NCBI GenBank assembly: GCA_965242985.1
Contig: OZ251520.1
Location: 1,683,227-1,747,226 of the forward strand
Length of the DNA: 64,000 nt
From: an uncultured candidatus Porisulfidus sp.
Lineage (GTDB): Bacteria > Pseudomonadota > Gammaproteobacteria > Poriferisulfidales > Poriferisulfidaceae
Direction: 5' to 3'
In this document: piece after piece, positions 29,469 through 64,000 of the stretch
Numbering within the stretch: position 1 is the stretch's first letter
How the letters are laid out: each line of letters opens with the position of its first letter
Program-made: the position numbers and the translations under genes
The notes under the pieces: generated by a model
The model's database searches: none
Told to the model about the DNA's origin: nothing
What the model saw: the letters and a program-made list of their open reading frames with translations, nothing else

Positions 29469-29477
29469 GTGAGACTC

Positions 29478-42691: not shown

Positions 42692-42725
42692 CCGAATGAT
42701 AAAGGATGGCCAGCCGGCTGCGGCG

Positions 42726-43766
42726 TCACTCGCGGCCTAGGACTCTATTAATGCTGCCGATCCCGTGCGCGCGCAGTTTTTCCGGCTTGTTGAAGTTCGG
42801 GGGGTGTTCCGCATAGACCACGCCCACCAAGCTGCATCGGGACAGGTCATCGCCTTGTCTCTTGTACACCTCCCAAATTCCTCCACCGCTCATACCGCCC
42901 CAAGATGTCGGATCCTCATGCAGTATTTTTTCCACCGCCGGATCCTGCGCTGCCTCCCCCCAATCAGACTGTCCTGTCTTTGGGCGGCCGTACAACTCTA
43001 GAGTGTAGTCGAAACGATCCCACCCGTCTTCCGACTCCAATGCAGGACCTTCGCGGAATACTTGCCTCTCCATTGCACATAGCGTTAACTTTTTTCTTTC
43101 TTCTGCCAGCAACTTCTTACTTTTCTCGTGTACTCGGCCGCATGCCCACAAGCTTGCCTGTTGGCGGCCCTGCTTACGCATTTCTTCGGTACGTGTTTCC
43201 TCTGATTGCCGCCAGTTGTGAAAAATGCCCCCATGTCTTTCGAGTTTGCGCGCATCTTCCTCCGTGATCCGCATCCAAGCGATATCCGGACCTTTCAACT
43301 GCACGTCCATCGGATCATCATGACTTGCGTCCAAGCCCTCCGACAACGGCATGATTTCCCCTTGCAGCGATATCGGAAGATAACCTTGCGAACCGAACGT
43401 TGCCAGCTTCCGCCTTTGGGCGATTGTCATCTCTGCCAACTTCCGCTCTTTGGCAATTGTCATCTTGACTTCTTCGCCTTGGGCTTCTTCGCCTTGCCGC
43501 TGTTCCTCGACTAGATGCCCCGCGACATGCCCAGCCGTCAGTATCCCCGGGTCGTCCCCATTTCGCACAAGCACGCCTGTCCCGACCTGAATCTTGAGCA
43601 TATCCTCCAAGCTTCGCACTTCTTCTCCATCTGTCCATTTGCTGATGAGCACGGTCTGGGCTCGCAATTTCCGTGCCACCCGCTGATTTTCTTCTTCACC
43701 CAAGGCTACCCCGACGTCATCCGCGAGACGGTCTCGGTCCGAGAGGTTGTTGGCCAAGCGATTCAT
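42726..43766 (-). CDS. Cytoplasmic trypsin-like (S1) serine protease
   Basis: LTAGHVAGH (His), GMSGGGIW (Ser) motifs; no signal peptide; low GC. Confidence 0.5.
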   Translation of the reverse strand: MNRLANNLSDRDRLADDVGVALGEEENQRVARKLRAQTVLISKWTDGEEVRSLEDMLKIQVGTGVLVRNGDDPGILTAGHVAGHLVEEQRQGEEAQGEEVKMTIAKERKLAEMTIAQRRKLATFGSQGYLPISLQGEIMPLSEGLDASHDDPMDVQLKGPDIAWMRITEEDARKLERHGGIFHNWRQSEETRTEEMRKQGRQQASLWACGRVHEKSKKLLAEERKKLTLCAMERQVFREGPALESEDGWDRFDYTLELYGRPKTGQSDWGEAAQDPAVEKILHEDPTSWGGMSGGGIWEVYKRQGDDLSRCSLVGVVYAEHPPNFNKPEKLRAHGIGSINRVLGRE

Positions 43767-43897
43767 CTTGGCCTCCTAAGCGGAAATGTTAGTCGTGAAA
43801 GTGCGGGTTCCCTGCCTGCCATTCGTCCAGACGCGGGATCACCGCAAACTTCAGTATGGACACCGCAGGTTGGTGAACACACAAACGCCATGACAAA

Positions 43898-44242
43898 CTA
43901 CCGGTACTGCTCGTTCAACCGGGGACCGTACGACTGCCCCAGCTCTTTCTCGATGCCTTTCCGCTCGTATTCCTTGTCCACTTCCAGAACATGGACATGG
44001 CTGACCCCTAGCCGCACCGCTTCCCGCCACTTGTCGTGCGCGGGAATCCTATCGGCGAAACTCTCCGTCTCCCCGATGTAGAGGGGGATATATCGCCAGG
44101 AAGACTCCTGCAAAAGAGCGAAAATGTATACGCCGCCCGTTTCGGGCACTTTTCCCCAATCGACGTCGCGGTCATAAACTCGGAACTGGTAGTCCAGCCA
44201 CATGCAGGTCCGGTCCAGGGTTCGGTCGGTGTAGGTCATCAT
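43898..44242 (-). CDS. GIY-YIG nuclease-domain protein (114 aa)
   Basis: GGVYIFAL...YIGETES...R...H motif. Confidence 0.55.
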   Translation of the reverse strand: MMTYTDRTLDRTCMWLDYQFRVYDRDVDWGKVPETGGVYIFALLQESSWRYIPLYIGETESFADRIPAHDKWREAVRLGVSHVHVLEVDKEYERKGIEKELGQSYGPRLNEQYR

Positions 44243-44343
44243 GGGCCTCTTCGTGCAGTGTCAACCATAGCATTCAGCCTGTCCCCCGCTATGCGGACGA
44301 TCGGGCATTTGCAGAATCGGGCGAACCATACGCGAGCCCGGCA

Positions 44344-44712
44344 TCAGCCGTTCGTCTGCACGCGTTGCACGTACGCCGTGACCACGCTGGTGATGGCCCC
44401 GCTGAAAAGGAAAATCCTGAGCCCGGGAAGCTCGTCTTCCGCCAACCACCTCATGCCGACCGGAGCCAAATGGTGCAATGCGACCACCACTACGACGACG
44501 GCCATGGCCGCGATCACCACGATCATCAACGAGTGCATGCCCCAAGACAAAATGGCGCGGCCCCGCTCATCGCGGCGATGCTTGCTGATCTTCTCCTGAG
44601 CCTCAATAGCGTAACCGCGGCGATACGCGCCTTTTTCGTCCTCGGCGTCAACCGGCTCGCTGCCCAGCTCATCCAGCGCTTCGGGCTCCAGAACGCGCCG
44701 TTGCCCCGTCAT
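44344..44712 (-). CDS. Small membrane protein, candidate toxin (PanT) partner of Panacea antitoxin
   Basis: Start MTGQRR overlaps the PanA stop (ATGA); hydrophobic IVVIAAMAVVVVVVAL segment. Confidence 0.4.
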   Translation of the reverse strand: MTGQRRVLEPEALDELGSEPVDAEDEKGAYRRGYAIEAQEKISKHRRDERGRAILSWGMHSLMIVVIAAMAVVVVVVALHHLAPVGMRWLAEDELPGLRIFLFSGAITSVVTAYVQRVQTNG

Positions 44713-45239
44713 GCGGCCTCCGCCAGTTTGGCGGCGGCCACTTTTGCGGCATAGTGCTCCATGATCAAGTTGTTCGGGATGACCGAGTTCTTCCCGCGCA
44801 AGCTCCACACCGTATGCCACGGCGTGTTTTCCGCATGCGTGAGCCGGGACAATTCCACGCCGCTCAGGTGGCTGTACTTCTGGTACACCTGCTGGAGCAG
44901 GTCGCTTTCAATGTCGTCGAAAACTTCCGTTTCCGGAGCGTAGATTTTCTCCGTGACAGGCTCCCCCCGGTACTTTCTCACTCCGCGATACACTTCCGCC
45001 ACCACCGGGCCGTAGCGCCACGCCAGAACATCGTGCCGGATCAGGGGCTTCCGATAAAGGCCCAGCATCCACCCGTGGGACAGGTAGACCAGTTTGACCA
45101 CCTGCAACGGGGTCAACGGGTTGTCGCTCTCGATGCCTTTTGCAACGATATCGTTTGCGACAGAACGCGAGTCACGCATAATTGAGGTCCTCCTTGCGGT
45201 CGATGCAGTAGTTCGGTTCCGGCAACTGATGGTTGCCAT
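44709..45239 (-). CDS. Panacea (DUF4065) domain antitoxin-like protein
   Basis: QVVKLVYLSHGWMLG, WRYGPVVAEVY, TPWHTVW signature; 176 aa. Confidence 0.65.
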   Translation of the reverse strand: MATISCRNRTTASTARRTSIMRDSRSVANDIVAKGIESDNPLTPLQVVKLVYLSHGWMLGLYRKPLIRHDVLAWRYGPVVAEVYRGVRKYRGEPVTEKIYAPETEVFDDIESDLLQQVYQKYSHLSGVELSRLTHAENTPWHTVWSLRGKNSVIPNNLIMEHYAAKVAAAKLAEAA

Positions 45240-45340
45240 GTCAACGACCGTTGACGACCATTGTAATCCACCCGCCCCCTCCCCCAGTCAAGCGGCGCTA
45301 TGTGCCGGACCTTTTCCGGCCCTTGCCGCCGCCTTACATG

Positions 45341-45540
45341 ATCTCCGCCGCAAAACCCGCTGCCGAGCGGCGGGAGCGCCAGCTCCAGCCCGGCATCGGT
45401 CGCCTGCTGCCGCGCGCCGCCGTAGGCGACGTGCAGCAGCGTCTCGTCCGCCGGCGGCGCGGGGGAGCCCGGGAGGAAAGTGAGGCGCAGGGAGCGGGGG
45501 CCGGTGTGCACGGTTCGGATTTCCTGTGGAACGAGGTCCA
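45341..45540. repeat. ~150-bp segment ~90% identical to the 5' end of gene 41675..42691 (42481..42660)
   Basis: gagcggcgggagcgccagctccagccc...ggcgcagggaNcgggggccggtgtgca shared. Confidence 0.6.
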
Positions 45541-45789
45541 CGGAGCTCGCGGAAAGCAACGTGTCCGCCCGCGGTACGCGGCAACACACTATAATATGTC
45601 AAAGTAATGCGGGACAACCTCCGAGAGGTTCCCGAAAACGCGCCGAGAGCGTGCAACTTTACGAAGAGGGATCGAGGACTTCACTAGGCTTCCGGTCAAT
45701 TGGCTTCTGCGGACCGGGTTGACCTCCCCGTTGAAACCTCATCAAACGCTGACTTGCCCGTACCCGTAAATCCTGCACGAAGTACTGCC

Positions 45790-48700
45790 ATGCCTAGAAA
45801 ACAACCACCGGTAGAGCACTTGACTCCACATTTCAACTTGCTCCAAGAAGAGTACTTGTTAATACAGGCATGGAAAAAGACCGTATCGTATATACGCCAA
45901 TATAATTGGTACGTGGATACCCTGCAACTCGATAGAGCTGCAATTAACCTGCGCTCGTTCATTTCGCGAATTCAGCGGCGCATACAAAAGCCAGAGTGGC
46001 AAAATCATAGGTTGCGGATCGTGCTGGCTCCCAAAAGCCAAACTTGGGAGACATCATCCAAATCTGCTCTTCCTTGGCATCCCGCAAATAAATCTGAACC
46101 AGACGAACCTACAATGCGCCTGCGGCCGCTCGCACACGTGGATATTGAAGAACAAGTTGTGGCAACCGCGCTGATGCTGTGTCTCGCTGATCGAGTCGAA
46201 ACAAAGCAAGGAGATCCGCGAGACGAAATCCAGGACGAGATCTCGAGGAAAAAAGTACTTTCATATGGCAACCGCCTGTTTTGTGACCGCAGCGACAACG
46301 AATTGCACCATCGATGGGGGACAACCAAATTATATCGAGCCTACTACCAAGACTATAGGAAGTTTCTTGCTCGTCCAGATGCTGTTGTGAAACCTCATGG
46401 GAAACAAAAGAATTTCCGGAATCGAAATATCTTCGTCGTTCATTCTGACCTTAAAGAGTTTTACGATAGGGTGCGACCTCGCCATCTTGCTGATGCCCTG
46501 CTACACCTTAAAGAAAATGCCGATGAGCAGCCATTCTTTGACTTTGCGAAGCGCGTTCTGAACTGGACTTGGAACTCCCGCGACAAAAAACAAAGCACTT
46601 TCTATGCCACTCAGGCGGGAATTGAAGACTTCGACCATGTGGCCCTCCCGCAAGGCCTAGTCTCCGCCGGCTTTTTTGCAAACATCATGCTTCTTGAGTT
46701 CGACAAAAAACTGCAAGAAACAATCGGGAAAAATATCACAAAAGATAGCAGCCTTCGTTTAGAAGATGCTTGCAGGTACGTTGACGACCTGCGAATAACC
46801 ATGACCAGTCCCCGCACAGATAATTCTGTAGATGTGGCGGATGTAAAAGACAAAACCTTGGCATGGCTACAACAACTGTTGATAGACACCGCGCCCGAAC
46901 TGGAGATCTCTATAGATAAGACTGAGATCCGCCAAGTAGATCAAGCCGATAATCCTTTGATCAATCAAAGCGCCAAGATGAATCGCATTCAAAAGGCGGT
47001 ATCTGGTGGATTTGATGCGGTCGGCGGAACCGAAATACTGGACTTGATCCAAGGCTTGATGCGGTCCCAAGAAGCATTGCATCGAAAAGAATGCGAAACC
47101 ATTTGGCCATTTTCTCCACTGACCGATGTCCAGAAAGGAACCGTCGCTAGATTCACAGCGGGCCGCTACCGGACCACATACAGATCCGTCAGGCCCCTGC
47201 TTGACGATACACAGCAGTCTAAGGAAATCAATGATGCCGACTTTCCTACAAAATCAGGTGCTGACTATCTTGGTCTCATCACACAACGCGAGCTTGATGA
47301 AGACATGCGTGTTTTTGCGCTTGGCCTTATTGAGCGATGGGTGGCCGATCCATCGAACGTAAGGTTGCTACGCATTGGGCTGGATCTCCGACCTGATGCC
47401 AAAATACTGCAGAAAATACTGGACATGATTCGCCCGCTGATCCATAAGCGAGGTCCGCAACGTTCCGTTGCATTGTATTGCCTAGCGGAACTGTTTCAGG
47501 CTGGAGCCACAGAAACTGGATGGGTAGAAGATAATGAATCTCTACCTGATGACGTCAAAGTCAAGCAATATCGGAAAATTCTGCGGGAGGAAGCAACTAG
47601 GCTAGTAGAACCAAAGACTGCTCTTATTCCTTGGTATCTCCGGCAACAAGCACTGCTATACCTCGCCGTCTGTTCTCCTGAAGAAGCGGTGCCAATCCCC
47701 CGGACAACTCAGAATGAAACCAAGCACTACTACAGAATGATCGAGTTTTTGCAGTCCGGAAATATTAATCAACCCATATCGGTGTCGGAGTTTGCGAACT
47801 TAGCGGTACTGGCCCATCGTTCATTCCCAAAAAGAAGAACAGTTACGGCCAAAGCAATTCGCCAACAACTAACACCCGCTCGAGCCGAGGCTATCGCTGC
47901 GCGAGATCTTTCGTTCGCTTACGACCTTGTCACACAGGAAACCCGCCCTTTTAATGTGACGCATCTGTCTACACACATCAAAGAAGATCTCTGTCTTGAA
48001 GAAAGTACAATTCCCGAGAATGGAATGCAGAGTCTTGCAAGTATCGTGTTGGAGAATAAACATGACCTAAACGTCTTTCAGAACGAACTGGCGGTGTTGC
48101 GCTTCGCGGAAAAATTCCTTGAGCAACTGTCGCAAATGTCTCCTCGACCTCTAGCTATCACCCCTAGGAACGTGTGGGTTGAAGTTAAGGCCCCGCACGC
48201 GCAAATTGCCAAAATCAGGCGAGTGAAAATCTTTCCCGACGTAACACCCCACTCCAACTCTCTCTATAGCCCTCCCAACTGGTGTGCTGAAAATGATCGT
48301 TGGCGTTTCAATCTTGGATTCCTAATCCGCTTTATACTCACGGGGCAACCGGATTTTACTCGTCGCGTATTTCCATCAGTTCACTGGAAAGAAGATACCT
48401 CCACATACCGGAAAGCGGAAAGCCACTGGTATCAGCGACTTCACGGATTATACAACGGTCAACAAGCATTCGGCGGAGACTGGGTCCCCGTGACGGACTG
48501 GGTGGAACAGTTTGTGCTGGCCCTCCTGCGTTGGCCTGGCTGTTACTTGCCCAAGACTTTTGAATTTGCCAGCAATGGGCTTGAGCCAACTAGGATGGCA
48601 ATTAAAACAAGAATCGGAGTGCTTAACAATGCTATGGGCCATGTCTCTGGAACACAACTACTCCCAGTTAACGCGCAACCTAAGCGGCTTAGCACAAAAA

Positions 48701-49599
48701 ACACCCTGCGAATCTGCGTTGTGCAGACCGCCATCCCAAAAGTCCGAGATTTCGAGAAGTGCGGTCTCTCACTATCCACGCCTTTGATCCGCAAAAAGCA
48801 TCGCAGACATCTTTCCGCTGCCCTCACCGCTGTCAAAAGCATTATGCATCTCCGAAACACTCACATGGAATGTGGCGGAGAATTGGATTGGCTGATTTTG
48901 CCCGAACTTGCGGTTCATCCGAAAGATGTAACGACTCACCTGATGCCATTTGCACGTGCCTATAAAGCGTTAATACTCGCAGGATTGACATATGAAAAAC
49001 TGCCACGCGGCCCATACCAAAACTCCGCGATATGGATTCTCCCCGAATGGTCCGAATCTTCCGAACTGCGGATTCGAACACGCAGGCAGGGGAAACAGCA
49101 CCTTTCTCCGGTCGAGAAGAAATTTAATGACGGCCGGGAACGTGTCCAAGGTTTTCGGCCCTGCCAATGGCTAGTGCGTTACCCTTGGTCAGCAGAGGAA
49201 AACAGCCAGCCTCTGATGCTGACCGGTTCCATTTGTTACGACGCAACCGATTTGGAAATCATCACCGCCCTCCGGAATCAATCGGATGTCTTGGCTATAC
49301 CATCCCTGAATCCGGATGTGCGAACGTTTGACCAGATGGCTCAAGCCCTGCATTACCACATGTTCCAGCTCGTTATCGTAGCCAATAACGGCCAGTACGG
49401 AGGAAGCAACGCATATTGGCCCGCCAAGGGAATCAAGAAGCAAATTTTTCATGTGCACGGGCAGCCGCAAGCCTCCATCACTTTTTTTGAAATCGACAAT
49501 ATCGAAGATTTTCAAAAGCGAACTCTCCCAAGCGATGAGCGCCAGAAATATCCTCTAGCAGGATCAAGATGGAAATATCCTCCAGCAGGCTTAGGCTAG
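45790..49599 (+). CDS. Reverse transcriptase fused to C-terminal nitrilase/CN-hydrolase domain (DRT type 1 / UG1-like defense RT)
   Basis: RT motifs (FVVHSDLKEFYDRV; ALPQGLVSAGFFANIML; YVDD) and nitrilase-like LRICVVQT...ILPE...GSICYD; ~1270 aa. Confidence 0.65.
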   Translation: MPRKQPPVEHLTPHFNLLQEEYLLIQAWKKTVSYIRQYNWYVDTLQLDRAAINLRSFISRIQRRIQKPEWQNHRLRIVLAPKSQTWETSSKSALPWHPANKSEPDEPTMRLRPLAHVDIEEQVVATALMLCLADRVETKQGDPRDEIQDEISRKKVLSYGNRLFCDRSDNELHHRWGTTKLYRAYYQDYRKFLARPDAVVKPHGKQKNFRNRNIFVVHSDLKEFYDRVRPRHLADALLHLKENADEQPFFDFAKRVLNWTWNSRDKKQSTFYATQAGIEDFDHVALPQGLVSAGFFANIMLLEFDKKLQETIGKNITKDSSLRLEDACRYVDDLRITMTSPRTDNSVDVADVKDKTLAWLQQLLIDTAPELEISIDKTEIRQVDQADNPLINQSAKMNRIQKAVSGGFDAVGGTEILDLIQGLMRSQEALHRKECETIWPFSPLTDVQKGTVARFTAGRYRTTYRSVRPLLDDTQQSKEINDADFPTKSGADYLGLITQRELDEDMRVFALGLIERWVADPSNVRLLRIGLDLRPDAKILQKILDMIRPLIHKRGPQRSVALYCLAELFQAGATETGWVEDNESLPDDVKVKQYRKILREEATRLVEPKTALIPWYLRQQALLYLAVCSPEEAVPIPRTTQNETKHYYRMIEFLQSGNINQPISVSEFANLAVLAHRSFPKRRTVTAKAIRQQLTPARAEAIAARDLSFAYDLVTQETRPFNVTHLSTHIKEDLCLEESTIPENGMQSLASIVLENKHDLNVFQNELAVLRFAEKFLEQLSQMSPRPLAITPRNVWVEVKAPHAQIAKIRRVKIFPDVTPHSNSLYSPPNWCAENDRWRFNLGFLIRFILTGQPDFTRRVFPSVHWKEDTSTYRKAESHWYQRLHGLYNGQQAFGGDWVPVTDWVEQFVLALLRWPGCYLPKTFEFASNGLEPTRMAIKTRIGVLNNAMGHVSGTQLLPVNAQPKRLSTKNTLRICVVQTAIPKVRDFEKCGLSLSTPLIRKKHRRHLSAALTAVKSIMHLRNTHMECGGELDWLILPELAVHPKDVTTHLMPFARAYKALILAGLTYEKLPRGPYQNSAIWILPEWSESSELRIRTRRQGKQHLSPVEKKFNDGRERVQGFRPCQWLVRYPWSAEENSQPLMLTGSICYDATDLEIITALRNQSDVLAIPSLNPDVRTFDQMAQALHYHMFQLVIVANNGQYGGSNAYWPAKGIKKQIFHVHGQPQASITFFEIDNIEDFQKRTLPSDERQKYPLAGSRWKYPPAGLG

Positions 49600-49896: not shown

Positions 49897-50052
49897 ATGG
49901 CCATTAAAAACCGTTCCGAAGAAGAGCGCAAACAAGAGGCGAGCACTGCCGCCAAAATCCTTCGCAGCCCCTATTCAAGCAAAGAGGCGAAAGCGGTTGC
50001 GGTCTCAGTCTTGATCCGGCCCGACAAACTTGCCAAGCGCTCCGGAAAATAA
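49897..50052 (+). CDS. Small protein with TAAKILRSPYSSKEAK repeat unit
   Basis: Paralogous to the two-repeat protein at 54033..54308. Confidence 0.3.
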   Translation: MAIKNRSEEERKQEASTAAKILRSPYSSKEAKAVAVSVLIRPDKLAKRSGK

Positions 50053-50190: not shown

Positions 50191-50664
50191 TTAAAACTTC
50201 CAGCCCTCCTCCCGCATGAATTCCTCCAAGTCCATGCAGACAATTTTGTACTCGTCGCAGATGTTTGGAATCCGGGCGCTGTCCGGCCGTCGTTTCTCGG
50301 TGGTCACCACGGTCCGGCGCTCAGTTTTCGCCTTGGCGATCACGAACGGATCCGCGCAAGGACCGCCTTCCAGCCGCTTTTTCTGCTGGACGAGCTGTTG
50401 AAAATGCGGATGACCGGAAAAAATCTTCGCCACGAATTCCATCTCTTCCGCCCGCGGTTCGGGAAACACTCCGGCCCTATGCCGCTTGGCCCAGGCCAAC
50501 GCGTCGTCCGCAACCTGCTCCAACTCCTTGAACACTTCCCGCGTCGATACGGTCCTTTCGTCCCTCACCGCGCGGTCGAACTGTTCCCAGAAGCTCGGAA
50601 ACTGATCGCGGTAGTAGTGCCGGAAAGTATCGATAAACACCCCCGTGTCGAACACATACTTCAT
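50191..50664 (-). CDS. DUF4411 (PIN-like) protein, typical partner of HTH-ImmA regulators
   Basis: 157-aa ORF, start overlaps ImmA stop (ATGA); N-terminal acidic PIN-like residues. Confidence 0.5.
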   Translation of the reverse strand: MKYVFDTGVFIDTFRHYYRDQFPSFWEQFDRAVRDERTVSTREVFKELEQVADDALAWAKRHRAGVFPEPRAEEMEFVAKIFSGHPHFQQLVQQKKRLEGGPCADPFVIAKAKTERRTVVTTEKRRPDSARIPNICDEYKIVCMDLEEFMREEGWKF

Positions 50665-51638
50665 GCCGGCCGACCCAAGCTGCGCAGGAACACCTCCTCG
50701 AAACGCCCGAGGTTGGCCACCTTAACTCCGATGTAGTCGGACAGCTGGTCGACGGTGATGCGCCCGCGCGCGTACCTGTGGAACGCAAGCTTCAGGAACG
50801 CGGCGCTCATGTAGGTGTTGTGGTTGAAATGCCAGTCGCCCCCGCCTCCGGTGGGGTTCCCAAACGACGCTTGGGCCCATTCCGCGACTTTCCGCTCATA
50901 GAGCGCTTGGCTGACGCGATCCGCATCGAGAAATCGGCGCAGGACGACTTCCCGGCTGACGCGGTAGCGCTCCGCCAGTCCTTCGACCCCGGCCTCGATA
51001 TCCGCCGCGTCCCACCGGGCGGTCTGCTCCCGGAAATCCCGGACGGGAACTAGCAGTTCGGCGGCGAACCGGTTGCAGGCCGCCTCCACGGCCCGGTCGC
51101 CCCGCGGCGGGCCGGCGGGAGAACGGGCATCGCGGAAGTCCACGCCGCCGGTTTCCTGCAGGATATGCGCCAGCTCGTGGAACAGCGTGAAGATCTGGCG
51201 GGATTTCGGCTGGTGGTTGTTGATGTAGATCAGCGGAAACGCCTCGTGGTGCAGGCAGAATCCGGAAATCTCGTCGTCTTGGAAATTGTCCTTGAAGACG
51301 AACACGCCGCAGTCCTCGACCCGCGCGCGCCAGCGCTTCAGCGCGGTCTCCATGTCCGGCCAGCGGCGTTGCTGGTCCAAGCCGACGCCCAGATGCCGCC
51401 GCGCTTCCGCCGCGGCCTCCGCCGGGGAGCGGCCCGCGCCGGCTTGCATCGCGCGCGACAGGAACCGCGCGCCGGAGCCGCGGCCGCCGGCGAGGTCGGC
51501 GATGCTGTACTGCAACGCTTTCGCGCGCCGCAGCAGATAGTGCATCCGGGGCGACAAGCCCGCGGCGATTTCCGGCGTCAGGCTCCGGAACGACTCCGCC
51601 GCCGCGGCCTCCTCCGGCGGCTCCGGAAAGAAAAACAC
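50661..51638 (-). CDS. ImmA/IrrE-family zinc metallopeptidase domain (HELAH), C-terminal part of a split HTH-ImmA gene
   Basis: FHELAHIL HEXXH motif; starts at a non-ATG codon in the conserved linker VFFFPEPP. Confidence 0.55.
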   Translation of the reverse strand: MFFFPEPPEEAAAAESFRSLTPEIAAGLSPRMHYLLRRAKALQYSIADLAGGRGSGARFLSRAMQAGAGRSPAEAAAEARRHLGVGLDQQRRWPDMETALKRWRARVEDCGVFVFKDNFQDDEISGFCLHHEAFPLIYINNHQPKSRQIFTLFHELAHILQETGGVDFRDARSPAGPPRGDRAVEAACNRFAAELLVPVRDFREQTARWDAADIEAGVEGLAERYRVSREVVLRRFLDADRVSQALYERKVAEWAQASFGNPTGGGGDWHFNHNTYMSAAFLKLAFHRYARGRITVDQLSDYIGVKVANLGRFEEVFLRSLGRPA

Positions 51639-52360: not shown

Positions 52361-53344
52361 TCAGTTGGGAATGGCTAGAGGTCTCCCAGTCCCGGGGTCA
52401 CGCGACCCGGTGAGAATAGGAGGACGCTCGGGGTTGATCTCTGCCGAGTTCAACTGCTCCTGCGTCAGTCCGGTGACCTTAACCAAGACGGTTCCATCAA
52501 GAATTGCATCTTTTATCACTACGTTCCCATTGAAATCGGTGCCTGAAAAATCGGTATCCGCTAAATCTGCCTGAGAGAAGTCGACCATAAACAAGTATGT
52601 CGCGGTTAATTTGGCCCCGGAAAGATCGGCATCAGTAAAGTCTGCACCATAAACACGAGCAGATGCCAAATTAGCACTTACGAGACTCGCCGCCACAAAA
52701 TTCGCACGTCCTAATATCGCTACGTTGCCCCGGTCCGACAGATTCGCATCATCCAGCAATGCTCGCGGCAGTTTCGCTTCAGCCACAAGCAATCCACGCA
52801 AATCGGTATTCCGAAGATCGAGATAATACTCTTCCTTAACTTCGGTGATCAATTGCCGCCCGCTTCTATCGGCTAAGGCCTCCATAACTGCCACCAAATC
52901 TCCAGGCAGTCCTCCCCTATTAGCGTCATGCTCATGCTCCGGTTTCCTTTTCATGCGAGTACGAACGAATGCAGACAGCGCAAACATGATCAAAACGTGA
53001 TAGTTCAAATGGCGCTGGGCCATGCGAGTCAAGGCGTGAATACCGGCCAGACGCGCAGTTCGCTTCCCGCCAAGCATCTCCGTCGCTCTTTGGTAGCGTT
53101 CGTTCAGCAAACTCCTTTGCGCCGTCGTCGCTTGCAGGTGCGCGGTGCAACTGCGCCAAATTGCGACAGGCAAGCCCAATGTCGCAACGATGATTAGGAC
53201 AAAATTGCGCAGGCGTTCATTATCTCCCCACAAAATTCCCCATATCGATTCCCAATACGTGTATAGATAGCCGAAGAGGATCAATACCGCAAGAACTCCT
53301 CCCACTAAGATCACTTTGCGGGAAGCAAGATACAACTTGGCCAT
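52361..53344 (-). CDS. Membrane-anchored pentapeptide-repeat protein
   Basis: Two N-terminal TM helices, then ADLSGAKLTATYLFMVDFSQADLADTDFSGTDF pentapeptide repeats. Confidence 0.6.
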   Translation of the reverse strand: MAKLYLASRKVILVGGVLAVLILFGYLYTYWESIWGILWGDNERLRNFVLIIVATLGLPVAIWRSCTAHLQATTAQRSLLNERYQRATEMLGGKRTARLAGIHALTRMAQRHLNYHVLIMFALSAFVRTRMKRKPEHEHDANRGGLPGDLVAVMEALADRSGRQLITEVKEEYYLDLRNTDLRGLLVAEAKLPRALLDDANLSDRGNVAILGRANFVAASLVSANLASARVYGADFTDADLSGAKLTATYLFMVDFSQADLADTDFSGTDFNGNVVIKDAILDGTVLVKVTGLTQEQLNSAEINPERPPILTGSRDPGTGRPLAIPN

Positions 53345-54032: not shown

Positions 54033-54308
54033 ATGCCCAGAAAAAGTACCGAAATCACCCGCGCGGAAGTGGCCAGCGCCGCGGCAAAAATCCTGCGCAG
54101 CCCCTTTTCCAGCAAAGCGGCGAAATCCGCCGCCGCCGCGGCGTTAACACCGCGGTCCAATAGGAAAACGGGTAGAAAAAATTCCGCTGAGGCCGCCAGC
54201 AGGAAAGCAGCCAGCACTGCCGCTAAGATTCTACGCAGCCCTTTTTCCAGCGAAGCAGCGAAAAGAGCTGCAGTTTCGGCATTGACGCAACGGCCCGGCA
54301 AGGCATAA
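54033..54308 (+). CDS. Small protein with two AAKILRSPFSSKAAK repeats
   Basis: Paralog of 49897..50052. Confidence 0.3.
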   Translation: MPRKSTEITRAEVASAAAKILRSPFSSKAAKSAAAAALTPRSNRKTGRKNSAEAASRKAASTAAKILRSPFSSEAAKRAAVSALTQRPGKA

Positions 54309-56973: not shown

Positions 56974-57531
56974 GTGGCGCTCCCCGCCCCGGCCGCCGGC
57001 GAGCTCGCGCAGGCCGCCGCCGCCGCCGCGCGCTGGCCGGAGCGGGCCGCGCGCGGCCTGTGCCTGGTCAGCGTCCGCGCCCAGGCCCTGTACCTGCTGG
57101 AAGACGGCGCCGTCGCCGCCGCCTGGCCGGTGTCGACCGCGCGCCGCGGCGTCGGCGCCCGCGACGGCAGCCTGCAGACCCCGCCCGGGGCGCACCGGAT
57201 CGCCGAGCGCATCGGCGCCGGCGCGCCGGCGCAGGCGGTGTTCGAGGGCCGCGAACCCACCGGCGAGACCGCCGCGGCCGGGAGCGCGCCGGGCCCGGGC
57301 GGCCGCGAGCGCATCACCGCCCGCATCCTCCGGCTGGACGGCCTGGAGCCCGGGGTCAACCGCGGCGGCGCGGTCGATTCGCGCGCGCGGTGCATCTACA
57401 TCCACGGCACCAACGAGGAGGACCGGATCGGCCGGGCCGCCTCGCGCGGCTGCGTGCGCATGCGCGCGCGCGACGTGATCGAGCTGTTCGACCGGGTGCG
57501 CGACGACGCCCTGGTGCTGATCCTGCCGTGA
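56974..57531 (+). CDS. L,D-transpeptidase (YkuD) domain protein
   Basis: IYIHGTNEEDRIGRAASRGCVRM catalytic His/Cys motif. Confidence 0.55.
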   Translation: MALPAPAAGELAQAAAAAARWPERAARGLCLVSVRAQALYLLEDGAVAAAWPVSTARRGVGARDGSLQTPPGAHRIAERIGAGAPAQAVFEGREPTGETAAAGSAPGPGGRERITARILRLDGLEPGVNRGGAVDSRARCIYIHGTNEEDRIGRAASRGCVRMRARDVIELFDRVRDDALVLILP

Positions 57532-58757
57532 GCGCCGCGCCCTCGCCGCTGCGCGCGCTGCTCGGCGCCGCCCTCGACCGGGTGCGCGGCGACGCCGCGG
57601 TCGCGGCCTGGCTGCGGGCCCATCCGGATGCCGCGTACGACCATCTGCTGGCCTTCGGCAAGGCGGCCGCGGCGATGGCCGACGGCGCGCTGGCGGCGCG
57701 CCCGGAGCCGGCCGCGGGCCTGGTCGTCACCAAGCACGGCCACCTCGCGGGGCGGCGCTGCGCCGGCCATCCGCGCCTGCGCTGCCTGGAGGCGGACCAC
57801 CCGGTGCCGGGGGCGGCCAGCCTCGCCGCGGGCGCGGCGCTGCTCGAATTCCTGGCGGCGGCGCCCGCCGACGCGCGCTTCTTAGTGTTGATCTCCGGCG
57901 GCGCCTCGAGCCTGGTCGAGGCGCTGGCGCCGGGGCTGGACTTGGCCGGGCTCAGCCGCCTCACCGACCGCCTGCTGGGCGCGGGAGTGCCGATCGACCA
58001 AATGAACGCGGCGCGGCGCGCGGTCTCGCGCCTCAAGGGCGGCCGGCTGGCGCGCCATCTGGACGGCCGGCCGGCCTGCGCGCTGCTGATCTCGGACGTG
58101 CCGGGCGACGCGCCGTGGGTGATCGGCTCCGGGCCGCTGTCGCCGGCGCCGGACGGCGGCGCGGCCGAACTGCCCGCGGCGGCGCGGGACCTGCTGGCGG
58201 GGATCGAGCCCGAGCCGGTTCCGCCGCCGGCGGCGTTCGCGAACATCGACGCGCATGTGATCGCCACGCTGGCGGACGCCAAGGCGGCGGCCGCCGCGGC
58301 CGCGGAAGCGCGCGGGCTGGCCGCGCACGTGCACGACGAGTTCCTGGACGGCGACGCCCAAGCCCGGGGAGCGCGCCTGGCGCGCTGGCTGCGCGGCGCC
58401 GAGGCCCCGCCCGGCTGCCACGTCTGGGGCGGCGAGACCACCGTGCGCCTGCCCGACGAACCCGGGCGCGGCGGCCGCAACCAGCACCTGGCGCTGGCCG
58501 CGGCGCGCGAGCTCGACGGCGCCGGGGGCGTCCGCCTGCTGGCCTGCGGCACCGACGGCACCGACGGCCCGACCGCCGACGCCGGCGGCGAGGTGGACGG
58601 CGCCACCCTGGCGCGGGGCCGCGCCCGCGGCCTGGACGCGGCCGCGGCGCTGGCCGCGGCCGACGCCGGCAATTATCTCGAAGCCGCGGGCGCGCTGGTC
58701 GCCACCGGCCCGACCGGCACCAACGTCATGGACCTGGTGCTGGCGCTCAAGGACTGA
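57528..58757 (+). CDS. Glycerate 2-kinase, MOFRL family (TtuD/GckA-like); GTG start overlapping upstream stop
   Basis: DUF4147 + MOFRL-type sequence (VTKHGH, LISGGASSL, GGETTV, LACGTDGTDGPT). Confidence 0.65.
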   Translation: MSAAPSPLRALLGAALDRVRGDAAVAAWLRAHPDAAYDHLLAFGKAAAAMADGALAARPEPAAGLVVTKHGHLAGRRCAGHPRLRCLEADHPVPGAASLAAGAALLEFLAAAPADARFLVLISGGASSLVEALAPGLDLAGLSRLTDRLLGAGVPIDQMNAARRAVSRLKGGRLARHLDGRPACALLISDVPGDAPWVIGSGPLSPAPDGGAAELPAAARDLLAGIEPEPVPPPAAFANIDAHVIATLADAKAAAAAAAEARGLAAHVHDEFLDGDAQARGARLARWLRGAEAPPGCHVWGGETTVRLPDEPGRGGRNQHLALAAARELDGAGGVRLLACGTDGTDGPTADAGGEVDGATLARGRARGLDAAAALAAADAGNYLEAAGALVATGPTGTNVMDLVLALKD

Positions 58758-58760
58758 GCC
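58693..58760 (+). repeat. Left copy of ~70-bp direct repeat = 3' end of glycerate kinase gene
   Basis: ggcgcgctggtcgccaccggcccgaccggcaccaacgtcatggacctggtgctggcgctcaaggactgagcc, duplicated at 63843..63912 with 1 mismatch. Confidence 0.85.
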
Positions 58761-58764
58761 AAAA

Positions 58765-59898
58765 GTGGTAGTATTGGCCCCGGACGACTTGGCCGCCGGA
58801 CATCATCCAGCCATGAACTCTTGGGAATCCGCTCGCCGAGAAATCGCCGAGGAATATGCAGAAAACCATTCTCGCCCTTGGGTCATCGGCTTTTCAGGAG
58901 GAAAAGACAGCACAGTACTCGCACACTTGGCGATAGAACATCTAATGCGCCTCCCCGCAAGCAAACGCTCGCGGACGATTCACATCGTATCGAATGACAC
59001 TCTTGTGGAAAGCCCTCAAGTTGTTGAGCATGCCCAACAGGTACTCAAGGAAATTGAGAATGCTACCGCAGCATTCAACCTTCCCATCAAAACCGTTACC
59101 ACGATGCCCGAATTGGATGGAACCTTTTGGGTCAATGTGATTGGCCGCGGATACCCAACTCCCAATCAGAGTTTTCGCTGGTGTACCGATCGCATGAAGA
59201 TTCAGCCCACCACGCGATACATCAAACAGCATGTAAGTATTTCCGGATCAGTCGTCTTGCTATTGGGTGTGCGGCGGGATGAAAGTTCTGCGCGTTCAAA
59301 TTCGATTTCTAAGCATGATGCCTACGGCAGGTTACACCCCCACCAGCAAATCAAGGACTGCTGGGTATTTCGCCCTATTGCCGATGTGACGACAGACGAG
59401 GTATGGGAGTTTCTTGGCGCAGAGCCGCCACCATGGGGAGGAGGACATGAAAGTTTAATTAATCTCTATAGAAACGCGGGAGGTGGAGAGTGCCCGGTCG
59501 TAACTGCCAAGCAGGATATTCCGTCATGCGGATCATCCCGTTTCGGATGTTGGACCTGTACGCTAGTGGAAAAAGATAAAAGCCTGCGCGGATTGATCGA
59601 TGCGGGGTTTGACGAATATTTGCCTCTTCTAGAATTCCGAGATTGGCTGGTTGAAATCCGCAACCAGCCGGACCGACGCCTCGCTAAGCGCCGTAACGGA
59701 CAAATCAGTTTTACCGCAAATGGCGCTCATATAGCTGGGCCTTTCACCATTTCCACGCGTGTGGAAATATTAGAGCGCTTGCTGGAAATGCAAGACCAAA
59801 CCGGCTATACGCTAATCCGGCCAAGCGAAATTGAGCGGATCCGGGAAATTTGGAGTCAGGATATAATGAAAGGCTCCGAGGCAACGGCTACTTGCTGA
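58765..59898 (+). CDS. DndC/SspD-like PAPS-reductase-family (PP-loop SGGKDS) protein with C-terminal Cys cluster
   Basis: VIGFSGGKDSTVLAHLA PP-loop; CGSSRFGCWTC cluster; start may be the ATG at 58813. Confidence 0.65.
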   Translation: MVVLAPDDLAAGHHPAMNSWESARREIAEEYAENHSRPWVIGFSGGKDSTVLAHLAIEHLMRLPASKRSRTIHIVSNDTLVESPQVVEHAQQVLKEIENATAAFNLPIKTVTTMPELDGTFWVNVIGRGYPTPNQSFRWCTDRMKIQPTTRYIKQHVSISGSVVLLLGVRRDESSARSNSISKHDAYGRLHPHQQIKDCWVFRPIADVTTDEVWEFLGAEPPPWGGGHESLINLYRNAGGGECPVVTAKQDIPSCGSSRFGCWTCTLVEKDKSLRGLIDAGFDEYLPLLEFRDWLVEIRNQPDRRLAKRRNGQISFTANGAHIAGPFTISTRVEILERLLEMQDQTGYTLIRPSEIERIREIWSQDIMKGSEATATC

Positions 59899-59927
59899 AC
59901 ACATACAATCTTTGACAGGGGAACCTC

Positions 59928-60161
59928 ATGGATACAATTGCTTTGCTCAAGGACTCTGAAAGGAGGCAACTCGTCGAGGAAATGTGCGAAGAGGCCCACA
60001 TTCCATATCTTGTCTTATGCGAGTTGCTAACGGCTGCCCTAGAAACCCAAGGCAATTCCACAAGGCACAAATTAAATCAAAAGATCGAGCAAATCATAGA
60101 ACCCCAAGTCACGGCGGCACAGGAATTACCGGAAAACAACGGTAACGGTGCAGGCAAATGA
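59928..60161 (+). CDS. Small hypothetical protein (77 aa) between DndC-like and DndD-like genes
   Basis: Intact ORF with 4-nt overlap to downstream gene. Confidence 0.3.
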   Translation: MDTIALLKDSERRQLVEEMCEEAHIPYLVLCELLTAALETQGNSTRHKLNQKIEQIIEPQVTAAQELPENNGNGAGK

Positions 60162-62236
60162 TACATTTGGATTACATCAAATTGCGGAACTGGCGGTCAT
60201 ACAAATACGCCAAGTTTGAATTTCCTCCAGCAGATGAACAGCGCAATGTGATCTTGATTACTGGAGTAAGTGAATGTGGAAAGACCTCGTTTTTCGAGGC
60301 ACTGGTACTTGGGCTGTACGGTCAGCGGGGCCTACGCTTGGCTCCTAGGGCCCGAAAGTCAAAGGGAGATGATGAGGCTAGAACTATGAACTACAGCCGG
60401 TTTATGGAAAGCGTACTGCATGAAGACTTTTTGAATGCAGAACAACGGTTGAACGCGGAACAACAACAAAGCTTGACTTGCGAAGTCGAAATTGCATTCA
60501 AGCTAAATTCTGAGCCGGTAGTCATTCATAGAATATGGCACTTTGACAAAGAGAGAAATCATCTTCCAGAAGATGATGACTTGCGGATACTTCGTTCGCA
60601 GGGACCCGTGGCGCCTCCTGCTATAGATGTGGAGGACCGGGATAAGTGGTACAGCGACTACATTGCTAGAAGCTTCTTACCAGTCGACTTGGCCAATTTC
60701 TTTCTGTTCGACGGCGAGCAGGCCCAGCATTATGCAAGCTTAGATATGGCGGACCAAGTGAAAAAAGGGATCAAAGGTCTGCTTGGATTAACCCTACTAG
60801 AAAGTCTTGCTGAAGATTTGCAGACATATGCGAGACGTGAGCGCAGTCACGTCTCGCACCCCGACGAGGAAGCCTTGAGTAACCTTGCAAATGAGATTGA
60901 AGAATTGCAGGGGCGCATCCGTACCAATGAAGAATTAATCAATACATTGGACAACGAAATCACAGATTTAAATCGAGATTCGGACAACTTGGTGAGAAAA
61001 ATGGAAGAAGATGATCAAGATTCTATGACTGATATTGTGGATTTAACAAAAGAAGAAGAGGACTACAGAGCAAATGCGAGAGAGGCCGCCCAAGGGGTTA
61101 GCGACCTCTTGGCTGGTGAAATGGCGTTGATGCTAGTAGGAGAGGAGTTGTTGAATAAGACGGTATCACAACTGCATGCAGAACGGAAACGAGAAGAGTG
61201 GGAGCAAGGTCGAGCACAAGGCGATGAAAAGTTTAATGAATATCATGCGGATTTATCTAGCCGACTATTGGCACTAGAACCACCGGTCGGTAAGGCGCTA
61301 CAAAAAAAGATATTGCAGGCAGTAAAAGCCGCATGGCAGGAGATCTGGCGGCCTTTACCAGAGGGGGCGGCAGATTCATATCTGCACAAGAGTCTGGCTG
61401 GTCGTGTTCGCAATCAAGCTGCAGAAAAGCTACAGGAAATTGATCAGGAAATTAATCAGAAATTAAAAGACTTGGCACAAAAGAGAGAGATGGCGCTGAA
61501 AGCAGCCGAAGAGAAGAAATTACAGCGCATGGCAGCACAGCGAAGAAAACCTGAGGTTGCTAAAAATGAGCGAGAGACATATAACGCAATTCGCGACCGG
61601 ATTCGCTCTCTGCAATCAAAAAAGCAAGAAACTGGGAGATTGCAAGAAAAGTTAAGGAGTGAGGCTGGCAGCAAAAATTCCGAGTTGCAGCGACTCACTT
61701 CATATATTACTTCCGACTCCATTCAACGCGCTAAATATGCCGAAAGAGTATCGGCCCTGATACAGAGAGTTGTGCAAGAAACCATACCCCATCAGACCAA
61801 AAATATAGGGGACGCGATGACTGCGGCCTGGAAGAAGATGTCTCACATGCCGGACAGAGTAGCCGAAATTAACGTTACCGACGCTTGTGAGGTCGAAATG
61901 CTGAACACAAACGGCGAGGACATCCGCAAGGTTGATCGGTCAGCCGGGGGAGAGCAAATCTTCACTCAAGCGCTTTTTTGGTCGGTAACTCATGTCAGCC
62001 AACACGAATTTCCATTTGTTGTCGACACCCCTTTGGCTCGCCTAAGTCATGAGAATAGATTGGGGGTGATTCGACAATTTACAGATCACTCAGGTCAGGT
62101 GATTTTGCTATCCACCGACACGGAAGTCGTCGGAGAAGTACTGGACGCCATCCGCGATAAAATTGCCATCAGTTGGCGGCTTGACCTGCATGAATATGAA
62201 AACGGCATTGGCCACACCACTGTGACGAGACTATAG
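60158..62236 (+). CDS. DndD/SspC-like SMC-type ABC ATPase with coiled-coil
   Basis: N-terminal Walker A GVSECGKTS, long coiled coil, C-terminal DTPLARLSHENR D-loop signature. Confidence 0.65.
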   Translation: MIHLDYIKLRNWRSYKYAKFEFPPADEQRNVILITGVSECGKTSFFEALVLGLYGQRGLRLAPRARKSKGDDEARTMNYSRFMESVLHEDFLNAEQRLNAEQQQSLTCEVEIAFKLNSEPVVIHRIWHFDKERNHLPEDDDLRILRSQGPVAPPAIDVEDRDKWYSDYIARSFLPVDLANFFLFDGEQAQHYASLDMADQVKKGIKGLLGLTLLESLAEDLQTYARRERSHVSHPDEEALSNLANEIEELQGRIRTNEELINTLDNEITDLNRDSDNLVRKMEEDDQDSMTDIVDLTKEEEDYRANAREAAQGVSDLLAGEMALMLVGEELLNKTVSQLHAERKREEWEQGRAQGDEKFNEYHADLSSRLLALEPPVGKALQKKILQAVKAAWQEIWRPLPEGAADSYLHKSLAGRVRNQAAEKLQEIDQEINQKLKDLAQKREMALKAAEEKKLQRMAAQRRKPEVAKNERETYNAIRDRIRSLQSKKQETGRLQEKLRSEAGSKNSELQRLTSYITSDSIQRAKYAERVSALIQRVVQETIPHQTKNIGDAMTAAWKKMSHMPDRVAEINVTDACEVEMLNTNGEDIRKVDRSAGGEQIFTQALFWSVTHVSQHEFPFVVDTPLARLSHENRLGVIRQFTDHSGQVILLSTDTEVVGEVLDAIRDKIAISWRLDLHEYENGIGHTTVTRL

Positions 62237-62247
62237 GAGATGTCGCC

Positions 62248-63777
62248 ATGGTTGAAATAACCGAACTCGGGAATATGTCGTTTCACCCAAGTGAACCGGC
62301 AGATAAAATTTTCGACGACCTGCAAGGTCAGCTAGGACTGCCTGCTCGATACTATACAGCGAAATTAGCTATCGCTCGATCATTATCGGAGGCAGAACAC
62401 TTCGGCTTAGAGGCTAAAGACAACAGCCGAAGCACCGAACTTCGCGGTCACCAATTATTCGGTCGAGATACTAAAAATCTTGCGGCATGGTTAGCGTTGA
62501 TTGTTCAGCATAGCGGTGCACAGGATCTTAAGCGGGACCAGTTCAGACATCTGATTCACTCCCATTTGAACCGAGGAGCCAAACTGCTGCAAGGAGACTG
62601 GGAAGCATCTGGGCACGAGTTTGAGCCTTTTGTGAACAAACTTGCTAAATTGGCCTCTGCTCCTAAACCGAGTAGCCCCCAAGTTCCTGAAACACAGGTT
62701 TCGCCGGTGTTTCGCGGAAAGATCGAATTACGCGTCGGTCCCACCGCAAAAGAAGTTCGCACTCAGGAGTCTGTTGTTTTCAAATTGAATATTGGGGGCG
62801 GGAGCCCTCACATGGCTCTTATGGGTGGGACAAATTCCGGCAAGACCTATACGGCTATAACCATGCTGAAAGAATTGCGTGCGCTTAATCAAGTGCCAAT
62901 GCTAGCTTTCGACTTTAAAGGAGACCTTTCAGAGAAATTAGCTCCTGGCATCAACGCGCAAGTAATTTCGCCGCCGCAAGAGACGGTGCCACTCGATATA
63001 TTCGCAACCCCCGATCGCAGCGACATCGGAATTAAAACCACAGCGGCAAAATTGCGCGAGTCCATACTTCGCGTAAAGGTAAGGCCCGCTGGGGGAATAC
63101 AGAGGGACTTGCTGAGAAAGGCCCTCATTACCGCATTACAAGCTAGTGCGCCTGGCGACCGCCCACCGGATCTTGGAAAGGTGGCCTCTGCTTTGCAGGA
63201 AGAATATGAGGACGCAGGGCAAAGACCTGATGAATTGGTTTCCACACTCAATGAGTTGTGTGAATTTGATTTATTTGCTCCCCAATATTCTCCAGCCGAT
63301 TTTTTCGCAAAAAGCTGGGTTATTCGTCTGCCTCAAGACGGTTCTGAGGAAATGCGACGCTTGATTGTCAATTTGACCTTGGATGCGCTGGACCGCTGGA
63401 TTAATGCTCAGAATGACGCTCCGAGAGAAGAAGATGGGTGCCAAGCACTCCGCCATGTCTGCATGCTCGATGAAGCTCATGTGATCCTTTCTACAAAACT
63501 GCCAGCTCTCGCCAATCTGATTAGAATGAGCAGGTCTAAAGGAGGCTGCTTAATGCTAGCTTCTCAATCACCGGATGATTTCGCCACTGGGAGTGAGAAT
63601 TTCTTGGACAACATGGGGCTGACTCTCGCTTTTGCGACGCAAGCCAAGCCGACATCGGTTAGTAATATATTTGGCCCTCACAGCCGGACCTTGAGCAATT
63701 TGGAGAGGGGGAAAGCCCTATGCAAATTCCGAGGACAAGAAACCAAAAAGATTCTGGCGTGGACGCCAGACAACTAG
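62248..63777 (+). CDS. HerA/FtsK-like (DUF87-type) P-loop ATPase with ~180-aa N-terminal domain
   Basis: Walker A MGGTNSGKT, Walker B CMLDEAH, LMLASQSP. Confidence 0.5.
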   Translation: MVEITELGNMSFHPSEPADKIFDDLQGQLGLPARYYTAKLAIARSLSEAEHFGLEAKDNSRSTELRGHQLFGRDTKNLAAWLALIVQHSGAQDLKRDQFRHLIHSHLNRGAKLLQGDWEASGHEFEPFVNKLAKLASAPKPSSPQVPETQVSPVFRGKIELRVGPTAKEVRTQESVVFKLNIGGGSPHMALMGGTNSGKTYTAITMLKELRALNQVPMLAFDFKGDLSEKLAPGINAQVISPPQETVPLDIFATPDRSDIGIKTTAAKLRESILRVKVRPAGGIQRDLLRKALITALQASAPGDRPPDLGKVASALQEEYEDAGQRPDELVSTLNELCEFDLFAPQYSPADFFAKSWVIRLPQDGSEEMRRLIVNLTLDALDRWINAQNDAPREEDGCQALRHVCMLDEAHVILSTKLPALANLIRMSRSKGGCLMLASQSPDDFATGSENFLDNMGLTLAFATQAKPTSVSNIFGPHSRTLSNLERGKALCKFRGQETKKILAWTPDN

Positions 63778-63842
63778 ACAACAAAATCATCGTCCGCATT
63801 GACAGCGCGGTGGACTCCTCCAATTCCGCCAAGATCAAAATG

Positions 63843-63912
63843 CCGGCGCGCTGGTCGCCGCCGGCCCGACCGGCACCAACGTCATGGACCTGGTGCTGGC
63901 GCTCAAGGACTG
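63843..63912 (+). repeat. Right copy of ~70-bp direct repeat (glycerate kinase 3' end) closing the islet
   Basis: Near-identical to 58693..58760. Confidence 0.85.
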
Positions 63913-64000
63913 AGCCCGGCCGCCGACCGCGGGTGCAGGCCGCCGGCGTCCGCCGCCAGCCAGCCGCCCTGCTCGTACCAGTCGCCGAGCACCGCGCGCA

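Follow-up and report, generated by a model that had tools for sequence, protein, structure and literature searches.

Among the Dnd systems, a subtype with a fusion of DndE to a HerA/FtsK ATPase (DndE::HerA/FtsK) is already known from computational work (Rakesh et al., NAR 2024, who cite Krishnan et al. 2020; PMC10853773). According to that paper, the gene set of the subtype consists of DndC, a small protein, an ABC ATPase related to DndD and the DndE::HerA/FtsK protein, DndA and DndB are dispensable or variable in Dnd systems and missing from many genuine ones, systems without dndA that rely on IscS are documented, and the fold of DndE resembles that of the oriT-binding protein TraY (PMC10853773). 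We know of no report of this subtype as a free-standing 5-kb islet flanked by attachment (att) repeats, nor of experiments on it. Here, we describe such an islet at positions 58761-63841 of a 64-kb stretch of contig OZ251520.1 (hereafter the window, i.e., the whole stretch analysed), where an operon of this subtype is inserted at the 3' end of a glycerate kinase gene.

The islet is bracketed by a direct repeat of 75 nucleotides (nt), the copies of which (58686-58760 and 63842-63916) are identical at 73 of 75 positions (self-BLAST E = 1.7e-29). A sequence-only reading of this DNA had already reported the pair, which is real, but the extent given at that time (58693-58760 and 63843-63912, with a mismatch at 58704) corresponds to its inner part. 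The left copy (attL, + strand) is made of the last 22 codons and the TGA stop (58755-58757) of the kinase gene, followed by three extra bases, and the final 72 nt of the gene fall within it. The kinase itself (57528-58757, + strand; DUF4147 and MOFRL, Pfam PF13660 and PF05161), for which the start was adopted from the gene call in the 98%-identical contig L006, has its closest named relatives annotated as glycerate 2-kinase or hydroxypyruvate reductase. The right copy (attR, + strand) repeats the kinase 3' end as non-coding sequence, after which the host core sequence picks up again at 63917. Between the two lie 5,081 nt of unique DNA, missing from related genomes and with a GC content of 49%, vs ~80% for the genome: the fraction is 0.79-0.81 upstream (57000-58749), 0.45-0.52 between the repeats, and host-like again past 63916. 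Four co-oriented genes on the + strand occupy the whole islet, whose two ends have no more than 52 nt and 64 nt of non-coding DNA. The four proteins contain no integrase, excisionase or other recombinase domain (small overlapping open reading frames (ORFs) of the islet were not scanned individually), and ARAGORN detects no tRNA gene either in the islet, in agreement with the sequence-only reading, or elsewhere in the 64-kb window.

The occupancy of the att site was surveyed in 11 contigs, the relatives having been reached via the PurF protein and the kinase of the window. Six of them (L006, L007, L008, L090, L091 and L092) are empty, with a single copy of the repeat. Contig L006, which encodes the same PurF protein, is 98.2% identical to the window through 58760 and resumes at 63842, with one 75-nt att copy and no islet, while in the five other empty contigs (among which L007 is a 1.88-Mb circular contig) a metallophosphoesterase gene directly follows the kinase. 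The five remaining instances (the window, L001, L003, L004 and L089) are occupied at the same site, and one alignment (A1) covers all junction types (attB, attL, attR and attP-type). Together, the precise empty sites (n = 6) and the same-site islets (n = 5) establish that 58761-63841 was truly inserted, site-specifically, at the 3' end of a gene, as had been proposed from the letters of the window.

Four variants of the islet can be compared, which are 78-88% identical to each other at the nucleotide level, vs 93-98% for the purF-kinase DNA of their hosts, and the presence or absence of the islet cuts across host relatedness. The non-coding attR copies are 96-100% identical to attB over a 67-75-nt core, while the neighbouring islet DNA differs by 12-22%, a near-identity better explained by recombination at att that was recent or occurred repeatedly than by an old frozen scar. 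In the L003/L004 variant, the kinase fragment is longer (113-118 nt, ~91% identity, with a 3-nt deletion); this additional kinase homology at the right end reaches significance in the L003 variant alone, the window, L001 and L002 showing none. Outside the clade, the closest kinase (65% identity) is encoded on a "Candidatus Porisulfidus" chromosome (contig of L025), which makes the host a small-genome, very GC-rich gammaproteobacterial sponge symbiont, an affiliation with which the host gene order (truA-trpFBA-accD-folC-dedD-cvpA-purF) is compatible. Judging from the "PANK22-1" sample labels, the samples holding the islet variants are sponge metagenomes. Contigs L002, L089 and L003 come from samples SAMN12291528, SAMN12290873 and SAMN12290235, and long-read sets underlie L006-L008 and L090.

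The first gene of the islet, dndC (58813-59898, + strand), encodes a PP-loop/4Fe-4S sulfurtransferase recognised by TIGR03183, PADLOC and Pfam PAPS_reduct; its frame is open from a GTG at 58765, the ATG at 58813 being the likely start. The protein reaches 371.7 bits with TIGR03183 (cut-off 290.4; profile positions 3-364 of 447) and shows SGGKDS and CxxC motifs. With the PADLOC models it scores 405 bits for DndC vs 52 bits for SspD, which makes the module Dnd-type and not Ssp-type, so that the "DndC/SspD-like" label first attached to this protein holds for its DndC half and not for SspD. This DndC lacks the C-terminal ~60 amino acids (aa) of canonical DndC and ends near profile position ~364-375. 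The small protein of 77 aa encoded next to it (59928-60161, + strand) matches positions 405-462 of 481 of the PADLOC DndC model (E = 2.6e-5) and positions 406-464 of 505 of NF005316; as it aligns with the final ~60 positions in each of three DndC profiles, we interpret it as the detached C-terminal piece of DndC, encoded separately. A homologous small ORF occurs in the dndC-dndD gap of 64 other loci. In this subtype (the window and the loci L009-L088), the small protein found in this gap is conserved, is 65-77 aa long and has the motif VVLL..GR.LV..C...L..LE.L...E..Q.GK.RK.GL. The 77-aa protein also matches the Pfam family Sp-DndD (PF20306) at 21 bits, under the cut-off of 27.2, and this family appears to be the detached DndC C-terminal piece.

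The third gene (60158-62236, + strand) encodes a DndD-related ABC ATPase of 692 aa, matched by PADLOC, TIGR03185 and Pfam AAA_23. Its best PADLOC model is named PbeC (PDLC02736, 552 bits, vs 258 bits for DndD), whereas TIGR03185 is matched over its full length at 226.8 bits, just short of the cut-off of 245.85. Walker A, signature motif and Walker B are all legible, and no CxC zinc hook can be read in the coiled-coil region. What had been called a DndD/SspC-like SMC ATPase is DndD-related, and none of the SspA, SspB and SspC models of PADLOC matches any of the four islet proteins.

The last gene (62248-63777, + strand; PF08870, DUF87 and TrwB_AAD_bind) encodes the DndE-HerA/FtsK fusion. The sequence-only reading took it for a HerA-like protein in a window devoid of DndE, a statement contradicted by residues 15-118, which match PF08870 at 43.2 bits (cut-off 25), even though TIGR03184 gives 21 bits vs a cut-off of 71.85. 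The protein comprises two ribbon-helix-helix units (residues ~10-136) and a HerA/FtsK-type ATPase domain (residues ~160-509), and its AlphaFold model (predicted local distance difference test, pLDDT, of 86) features strand-helix-helix twice, a C-terminal helix, a disordered linker and the ATPase. By sequence as well as by fold, the best PDB match of the HerA/FtsK domain is the C-domain of DndH (DptH, 7es4; E = 1.7e-16, TM 0.78); the PADLOC DndH models match it as well, its Walker motifs are intact, and its fold is also similar to those of the conjugative coupling protein TrwB and of VirB4. More than 500 full-length homologues of the fusion exist, several of them labelled "DndE family protein" by NCBI. 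Carriage of the operon by plasmids or phages was set aside, with a single full-length plasmid match (Methylorubrum extorquens AM1 megaplasmid) and no phage match for the fusion protein.

Taken together, the operon is a member of the DndE::HerA/FtsK-fusion Dnd subtype, and its architecture is not new. The sequence-only reading was right that DndA and DndB are absent (neither is found among the four genes by profile searches), but not in regarding the module as an atypical Dnd/Ssp assemblage, since profile searches place the set in the subtype outlined in PMC10853773. Nor is the module Pbe-type, the islet having no PbeA-like gene (HKD-nuclease/SF2-helicase). The same four-gene operon is kept with near-identical spacing in 80 species of the GTDB (L009-L088), and the closest group of operons (49-53% identity) comes mostly from metagenome-assembled genomes (MAGs) of sponge symbionts belonging to several phyla. 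In about 25 of the 80 loci, the operon is followed by a small protein (162 aa, or 181 aa and hydrophobic, the latter probably a membrane protein) and by a DndB/DpdB-like DGQHR protein of 411-425 aa, while 10 of the 80 carry an S-adenosylmethionine (SAM) methyltransferase on the opposite strand downstream of it. These three proteins may be the missing regulator or effector partners; the islet of the window has neither the DGQHR/DndB-like gene, nor the downstream small protein, nor the methyltransferase.

From what is known of these families, the cargo of the islet would be a single operon for DNA phosphorothioate (PT) modification. Briefly, DndC and its separate 77-aa C-terminal piece would activate the DNA backbone and transfer sulfur, which would have to come from an IscS-type cysteine desulfurase of the host, owing to the lack of dndA in the islet. 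The DndD-related ABC ATPase and the double ribbon-helix-helix DndE would scan the DNA and select the target sites, the fused HerA/FtsK ring ATPase presumably providing DNA translocation. The islet encodes no nuclease, and among the window ORFs scanned with PADLOC nothing is recognised as DndFGH or SspE-like; for want of a nuclease or PT-sensing partner in the islet, the system is predicted to mark DNA rather than to restrict it, and would be locally modification-only unless some other part of the genome supplies a partner. As for its expression, the scan found neither a sigma-70 promoter between the kinase stop and dndC nor a + strand terminator, so that both read-through from the host operon and a promoter at the extreme left end of the islet are possible. 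A possible extended -10 (TGGTAGTAT, 58765-58773) can be made out by eye only.

How did such a compact operon reach the end of the kinase gene? We consider it slightly better than an even bet that the islet was acquired horizontally, integrated within the last ~70 nt of the gene and was moved as a 5.1-kb circle by a tyrosine integrase acting in trans. Under this scenario, recombination within these ~70 nt would have duplicated the stretch as attL and attR while keeping the kinase intact, the islet would enter and leave the chromosome as a circle via the att repeat, and the integrase would be supplied by another element, as is the case for a cis-mobilizable element (CIME) or a satellite. Besides the conservation of attR, the contig L002 is consistent with it: 5,190 nt long, with a 55-nt terminal overlap and opened inside dndD, it contains an attP-type junction (right end-core-left end), shares 99.1% identity with the islet integrated in L089 and, being what an excised circle would yield, suggests such a circle.

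Integrases do accompany the same operon in other species. In L055, it is part of the cargo of an island with a 46-nt tRNA-Thr repeat, an integrase and VapE; in L070, the module has a tRNA-Leu directly upstream and an integrase downstream, although no repeat flanking it was found; overall, an integrase or remnants of one lie within 10 kb of the operon in about 11 of the 80 loci. A second cargo-only islet comes from an alphaproteobacterial MAG (L062, 6146-12708), where a perfect 51-nt 3' half of tRNA-Arg occurs in three tandem copies, which delimit first a 5.4-kb islet made of the four dnd genes, then a 1-kb segment, the third copy being followed by the core gene neuB. No integrase is found at this locus, which we read as tandem accretion at an integrase-type target. 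By reading the sequence, the 1-kb segment carries, on the - strand, a toxin-antitoxin pair of the MNT/HEPN type. Elsewhere, 53 of the 55 other species tested have no repeats flanking the operon beyond chance. A 12-nt match to the 3' end of tRNA-Gly after the operon of L087 was considered as a third minimal islet and rejected, as it does not stand out from the null distribution of repeats arising by chance.

Several points weigh against this scenario. Of the ~50 ORFs of the 64-kb window that were scanned, none shows a recombinase or transposase domain, tblastn searches with three tyrosine integrases return nothing from the window, L001-L004 and L062, and no integrase-bearing element with the att site of the islet was found; with no integrase in the window or in any related contig, the trans-acting enzyme is hypothetical. 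Instead of a circle, L002 could be an assembly-graph loop (its 68-nt repeat exceeds k = 55) or could reflect a tandem duplication. With non-coding flanks of 52 and 64 nt, arm-type integrase sites would need to be intragenic. An imperfect inverted repeat (CCGGCACCA-12 nt-TGGTGCTGG, 58714-58743), which pairs at 8 of 9 positions and lies in the only stretch invariant across nine att copies, is weak evidence for a recombinase core site, as an equally good match appears in 10% of shuffles and the repeat is not statistically significant. On the functional side, the DndD-like protein scores under the NCBIfam DndD cut-off, and PT modification and the need for IscS are predictions. Two further leads came to little: scanning metagenome and viral contig collections for the 28-nt invariant att core returned nothing, though the JGI contig L001 contains this core, and conserved end sequences, which might have pointed to arm sites, were not borne out: in three variants the islet starts with 33 identical nt, but the window-wise identity is only ~1 standard deviation above the mean.

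The main rival explanation, unlikely in our view, dispenses with any dedicated enzyme: a copy of 68-118 nt of the kinase 3' end on an incoming molecule would be enough for a RecA-driven single crossover of the Campbell type, and looping-out between the repeats would restore the empty site. It accounts for a homology of variable length, i.e., 68-75 nt in the window, L001 and L002 vs 113-118 nt in L003/L004, where the identity is ~91% and 3 nt are deleted, for the lack of a recombinase in the ~50 ORFs scanned over 64 kb, in which at least six foreign islets lie, and for a second recombinase-less islet in the window (42649-45513), which has a longer, imperfect repeat (150 nt, 90.7% identical) derived from the 5' part of a different gene. 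Nevertheless, 70 nt make a poor RecA substrate, the L062 locus uses a classic integrase target (a tRNA 3' half starting from the anticodon loop, perfectly repeated three times), and the origin of a patch ending three bases past a stop codon is left unexplained.

A bolder reading, which we regard as a doubtful proposition, is that the dnd operon and its ~70-nt att form a self-contained, recombinase-less "defence cassette" cycling through the 5.1-kb circle, and that, along with neighbouring mini-islets likewise endowed with repeats but no recombinase, it reveals a cassette-exchange system of sponge symbionts. If true, defence cassettes would be captured at gene or tRNA 3' ends by a logic akin to that of integrons, with an unlinked recombinase or the RecA of the host, and the neighbours of the dnd islet in this system would be, at 42649-45513, the islet with the Panacea toxin-antitoxin and, in L062, the MNT/HEPN islet of 1 kb adjoining the dnd islet.

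Alternatively, the islet could be an immobile remnant: a larger island resembling L055 or L070 would have integrated once in the ancestor of the clade and lost its integrase, some lineages having then deleted the islet precisely, and the differences between variants would be ascribed to fast-evolving defence genes. Integrase-bearing island versions are indeed known in other species, and a precise deletion between the 75-nt repeats would recreate the empty sites observed. Moreover, on terminal branches, the substitutions of the window copy are directed towards GC (100 AT>GC vs 43 GC>AT), which fits a long residence. However, the islets of the three other variant branches (L089, L001 and L003) show no such drift, their substitutions being roughly balanced though their hosts have ~78% GC. 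These differences are compatible with differing residence times, but the direction of substitutions was abandoned as a residence clock because its outcome is ambiguous, since low-GC islets might escape the GC-biasing process of the host. In addition, attR has not decayed despite being non-coding and adjoining diverged islet DNA, neither an integrase pseudogene nor spare DNA is present in the five variants or in the independent L062, and a contig with an attP-type junction exists. We therefore find a frozen remnant rather improbable.

That the dnd module mobilises itself, the DndE/HerA-FtsK fusion and the ABC ATPase mediating transfer or integration, is very improbable. The idea draws on the fact that two independent cargo-only islets (in the window and in L062) consist of exactly these four genes, on the likeness of the ATPase fold to TrwB and VirB4, and on that of DndE, a ribbon-helix-helix protein, to TraY (PMC10853773). 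Against this, no tyrosine, serine, DDE or HUH strand-transferase chemistry is detectable in the four proteins, and the 53 of 55 species without flanking repeats beyond chance carry the operon as ordinary cargo. Finally, an assembly chimera or contamination, i.e., low-GC DNA misjoined into a high-GC contig, for which the 30-point GC contrast could speak, is effectively refuted by independent assemblies from different samples and sources that share the junctions, by the 11 kb of contiguous host DNA in L089 and by the presence of both junctions in L003.

Beyond the dnd islet, the window is a mosaic of core DNA at 75-80% GC and at least six islets at 46-58% GC packed with defence genes. These genes include PDC-S01 (6698-7972) and, beside it, an unknown protein of 1370 aa (7969-12081), SocA with SLOG (13370-15059), an AbiL-like RloB with AAA_21 (15332-17280), E1/ThiF-DUF6791 with DUF6527 (18581-20237), BilD with JAB (28080-30296), an M78-UvrD-PDDEXK set (31020-34439), Drt1a (45700-49599), DUF4411 with M78 (50191-51638) and a pentapeptide protein (52361-53344). 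The 2.9-kb islet at 42649-45513 has its direct repeats at 42499-42648 and 45364-45513; they correspond to the 5' portion of a chorismatase-like gene (41675-42691, - strand), and a SocA/Panacea antitoxin-like gene (44709-45239) is part of the islet's cargo. The segment with DUF4411, M78 and the pentapeptide protein lies between the copies of a 54-nt direct repeat (80% identity; 49939-49992 and 54210-54263), and by comparison with L007 the host core restarts at ~54204, at the second copy of this repeat. A repeat at 15033-15152 and 20416-20536 (74%) was dismissed as an att pair, as its sequence looks like two short paralogous coding regions belonging to ubiquitin-like defence systems that lie next to each other. 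Two paralogous genes for Slam, the surface lipoprotein assembly modifier (3765-5285 and 36232-38328), lie 32 kb apart, share 66% identity over 1.1 kb and enclose a large part of the islet-rich region, and a perfect 25-nt direct repeat (17-41 and 1448-1472, 1.4 kb apart) lies around an AAA_16 ATPase gene (281-1456).

The interest of the locus resides less in its gene set, a known Dnd subtype of experimentally unproven function, than in the clean natural experiment that it offers. Near-isogenic populations with and without the 5-kb module of four PT genes coexist in the same sponge metagenomes, so that PT marks, their sequence motif and any effect of the module on fitness could be read directly from existing long-read data. 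The locus further shows that a full modification operon can be passed on as a minimal unit, flanked by att repeats and lacking a recombinase of its own, a form of packaging that bears on the shuffling of defence genes among symbionts. This minimal packaging and the clean polymorphism make the islet modestly unusual, and current understanding is not overturned.

Compared with described systems, the islet is closest to the DndE::HerA/FtsK Dnd systems (clade-3 HerA/FtsK), with which it shares DndE and HerA/FtsK in one polypeptide adjoining a DndD-related ATPase, DndC and a small protein, as well as an ATPase of which the closest solved relative is the C-domain of DndH. With canonical DndABCDE (Streptomyces lividans, Salmonella, E. 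coli B7A), it has in common a DndC above the equivalog cut-off, a DndD-like protein and DndE, but it differs in having neither dndA nor dndB, in a DndC split into 377 aa and 77 aa, in a DndE bearing a translocase domain of ~350 aa and in an ABC ATPase under the DndD cut-off. The combination of a small protein, an ABC ATPase and DndE is a logic common to the islet, PbeABCD/CxC-ABC and SspABCD, and the best PADLOC model for the islet ABC ATPase is named after PbeC; in contrast, the islet has neither the CxC zinc hook nor the HKD-helicase PbeA of the former, and neither SspA nor SspB of the latter, whose SspD model is matched at just 52 bits.

With respect to mobility, the CIMEs associated with ICESt1 and ICESt3 in Streptococcus thermophilus are integrase-less, att-flanked islets that use the integrase of a related integrative and conjugative element (ICE) or genomic island. 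Like them, the dnd islet is att-flanked and holds cargo only, without recombination genes, the comparable L062 locus displays tandem accretion, and integrase-bearing relatives with the same cargo exist (L055 and L070); unlike them, it has no partner integrase or element found for its att, and its target is the 3' end of a protein-coding gene. This last feature is that of phage 21 and e14, which integrate at the 3' end of icd and bring a replacement 3' end. Whereas those elements encode their own integrase and the islet does not, both duplicate the 3' end and leave the target gene intact, and in both the copy brought by the element may be longer and imperfect, as it is in L003.

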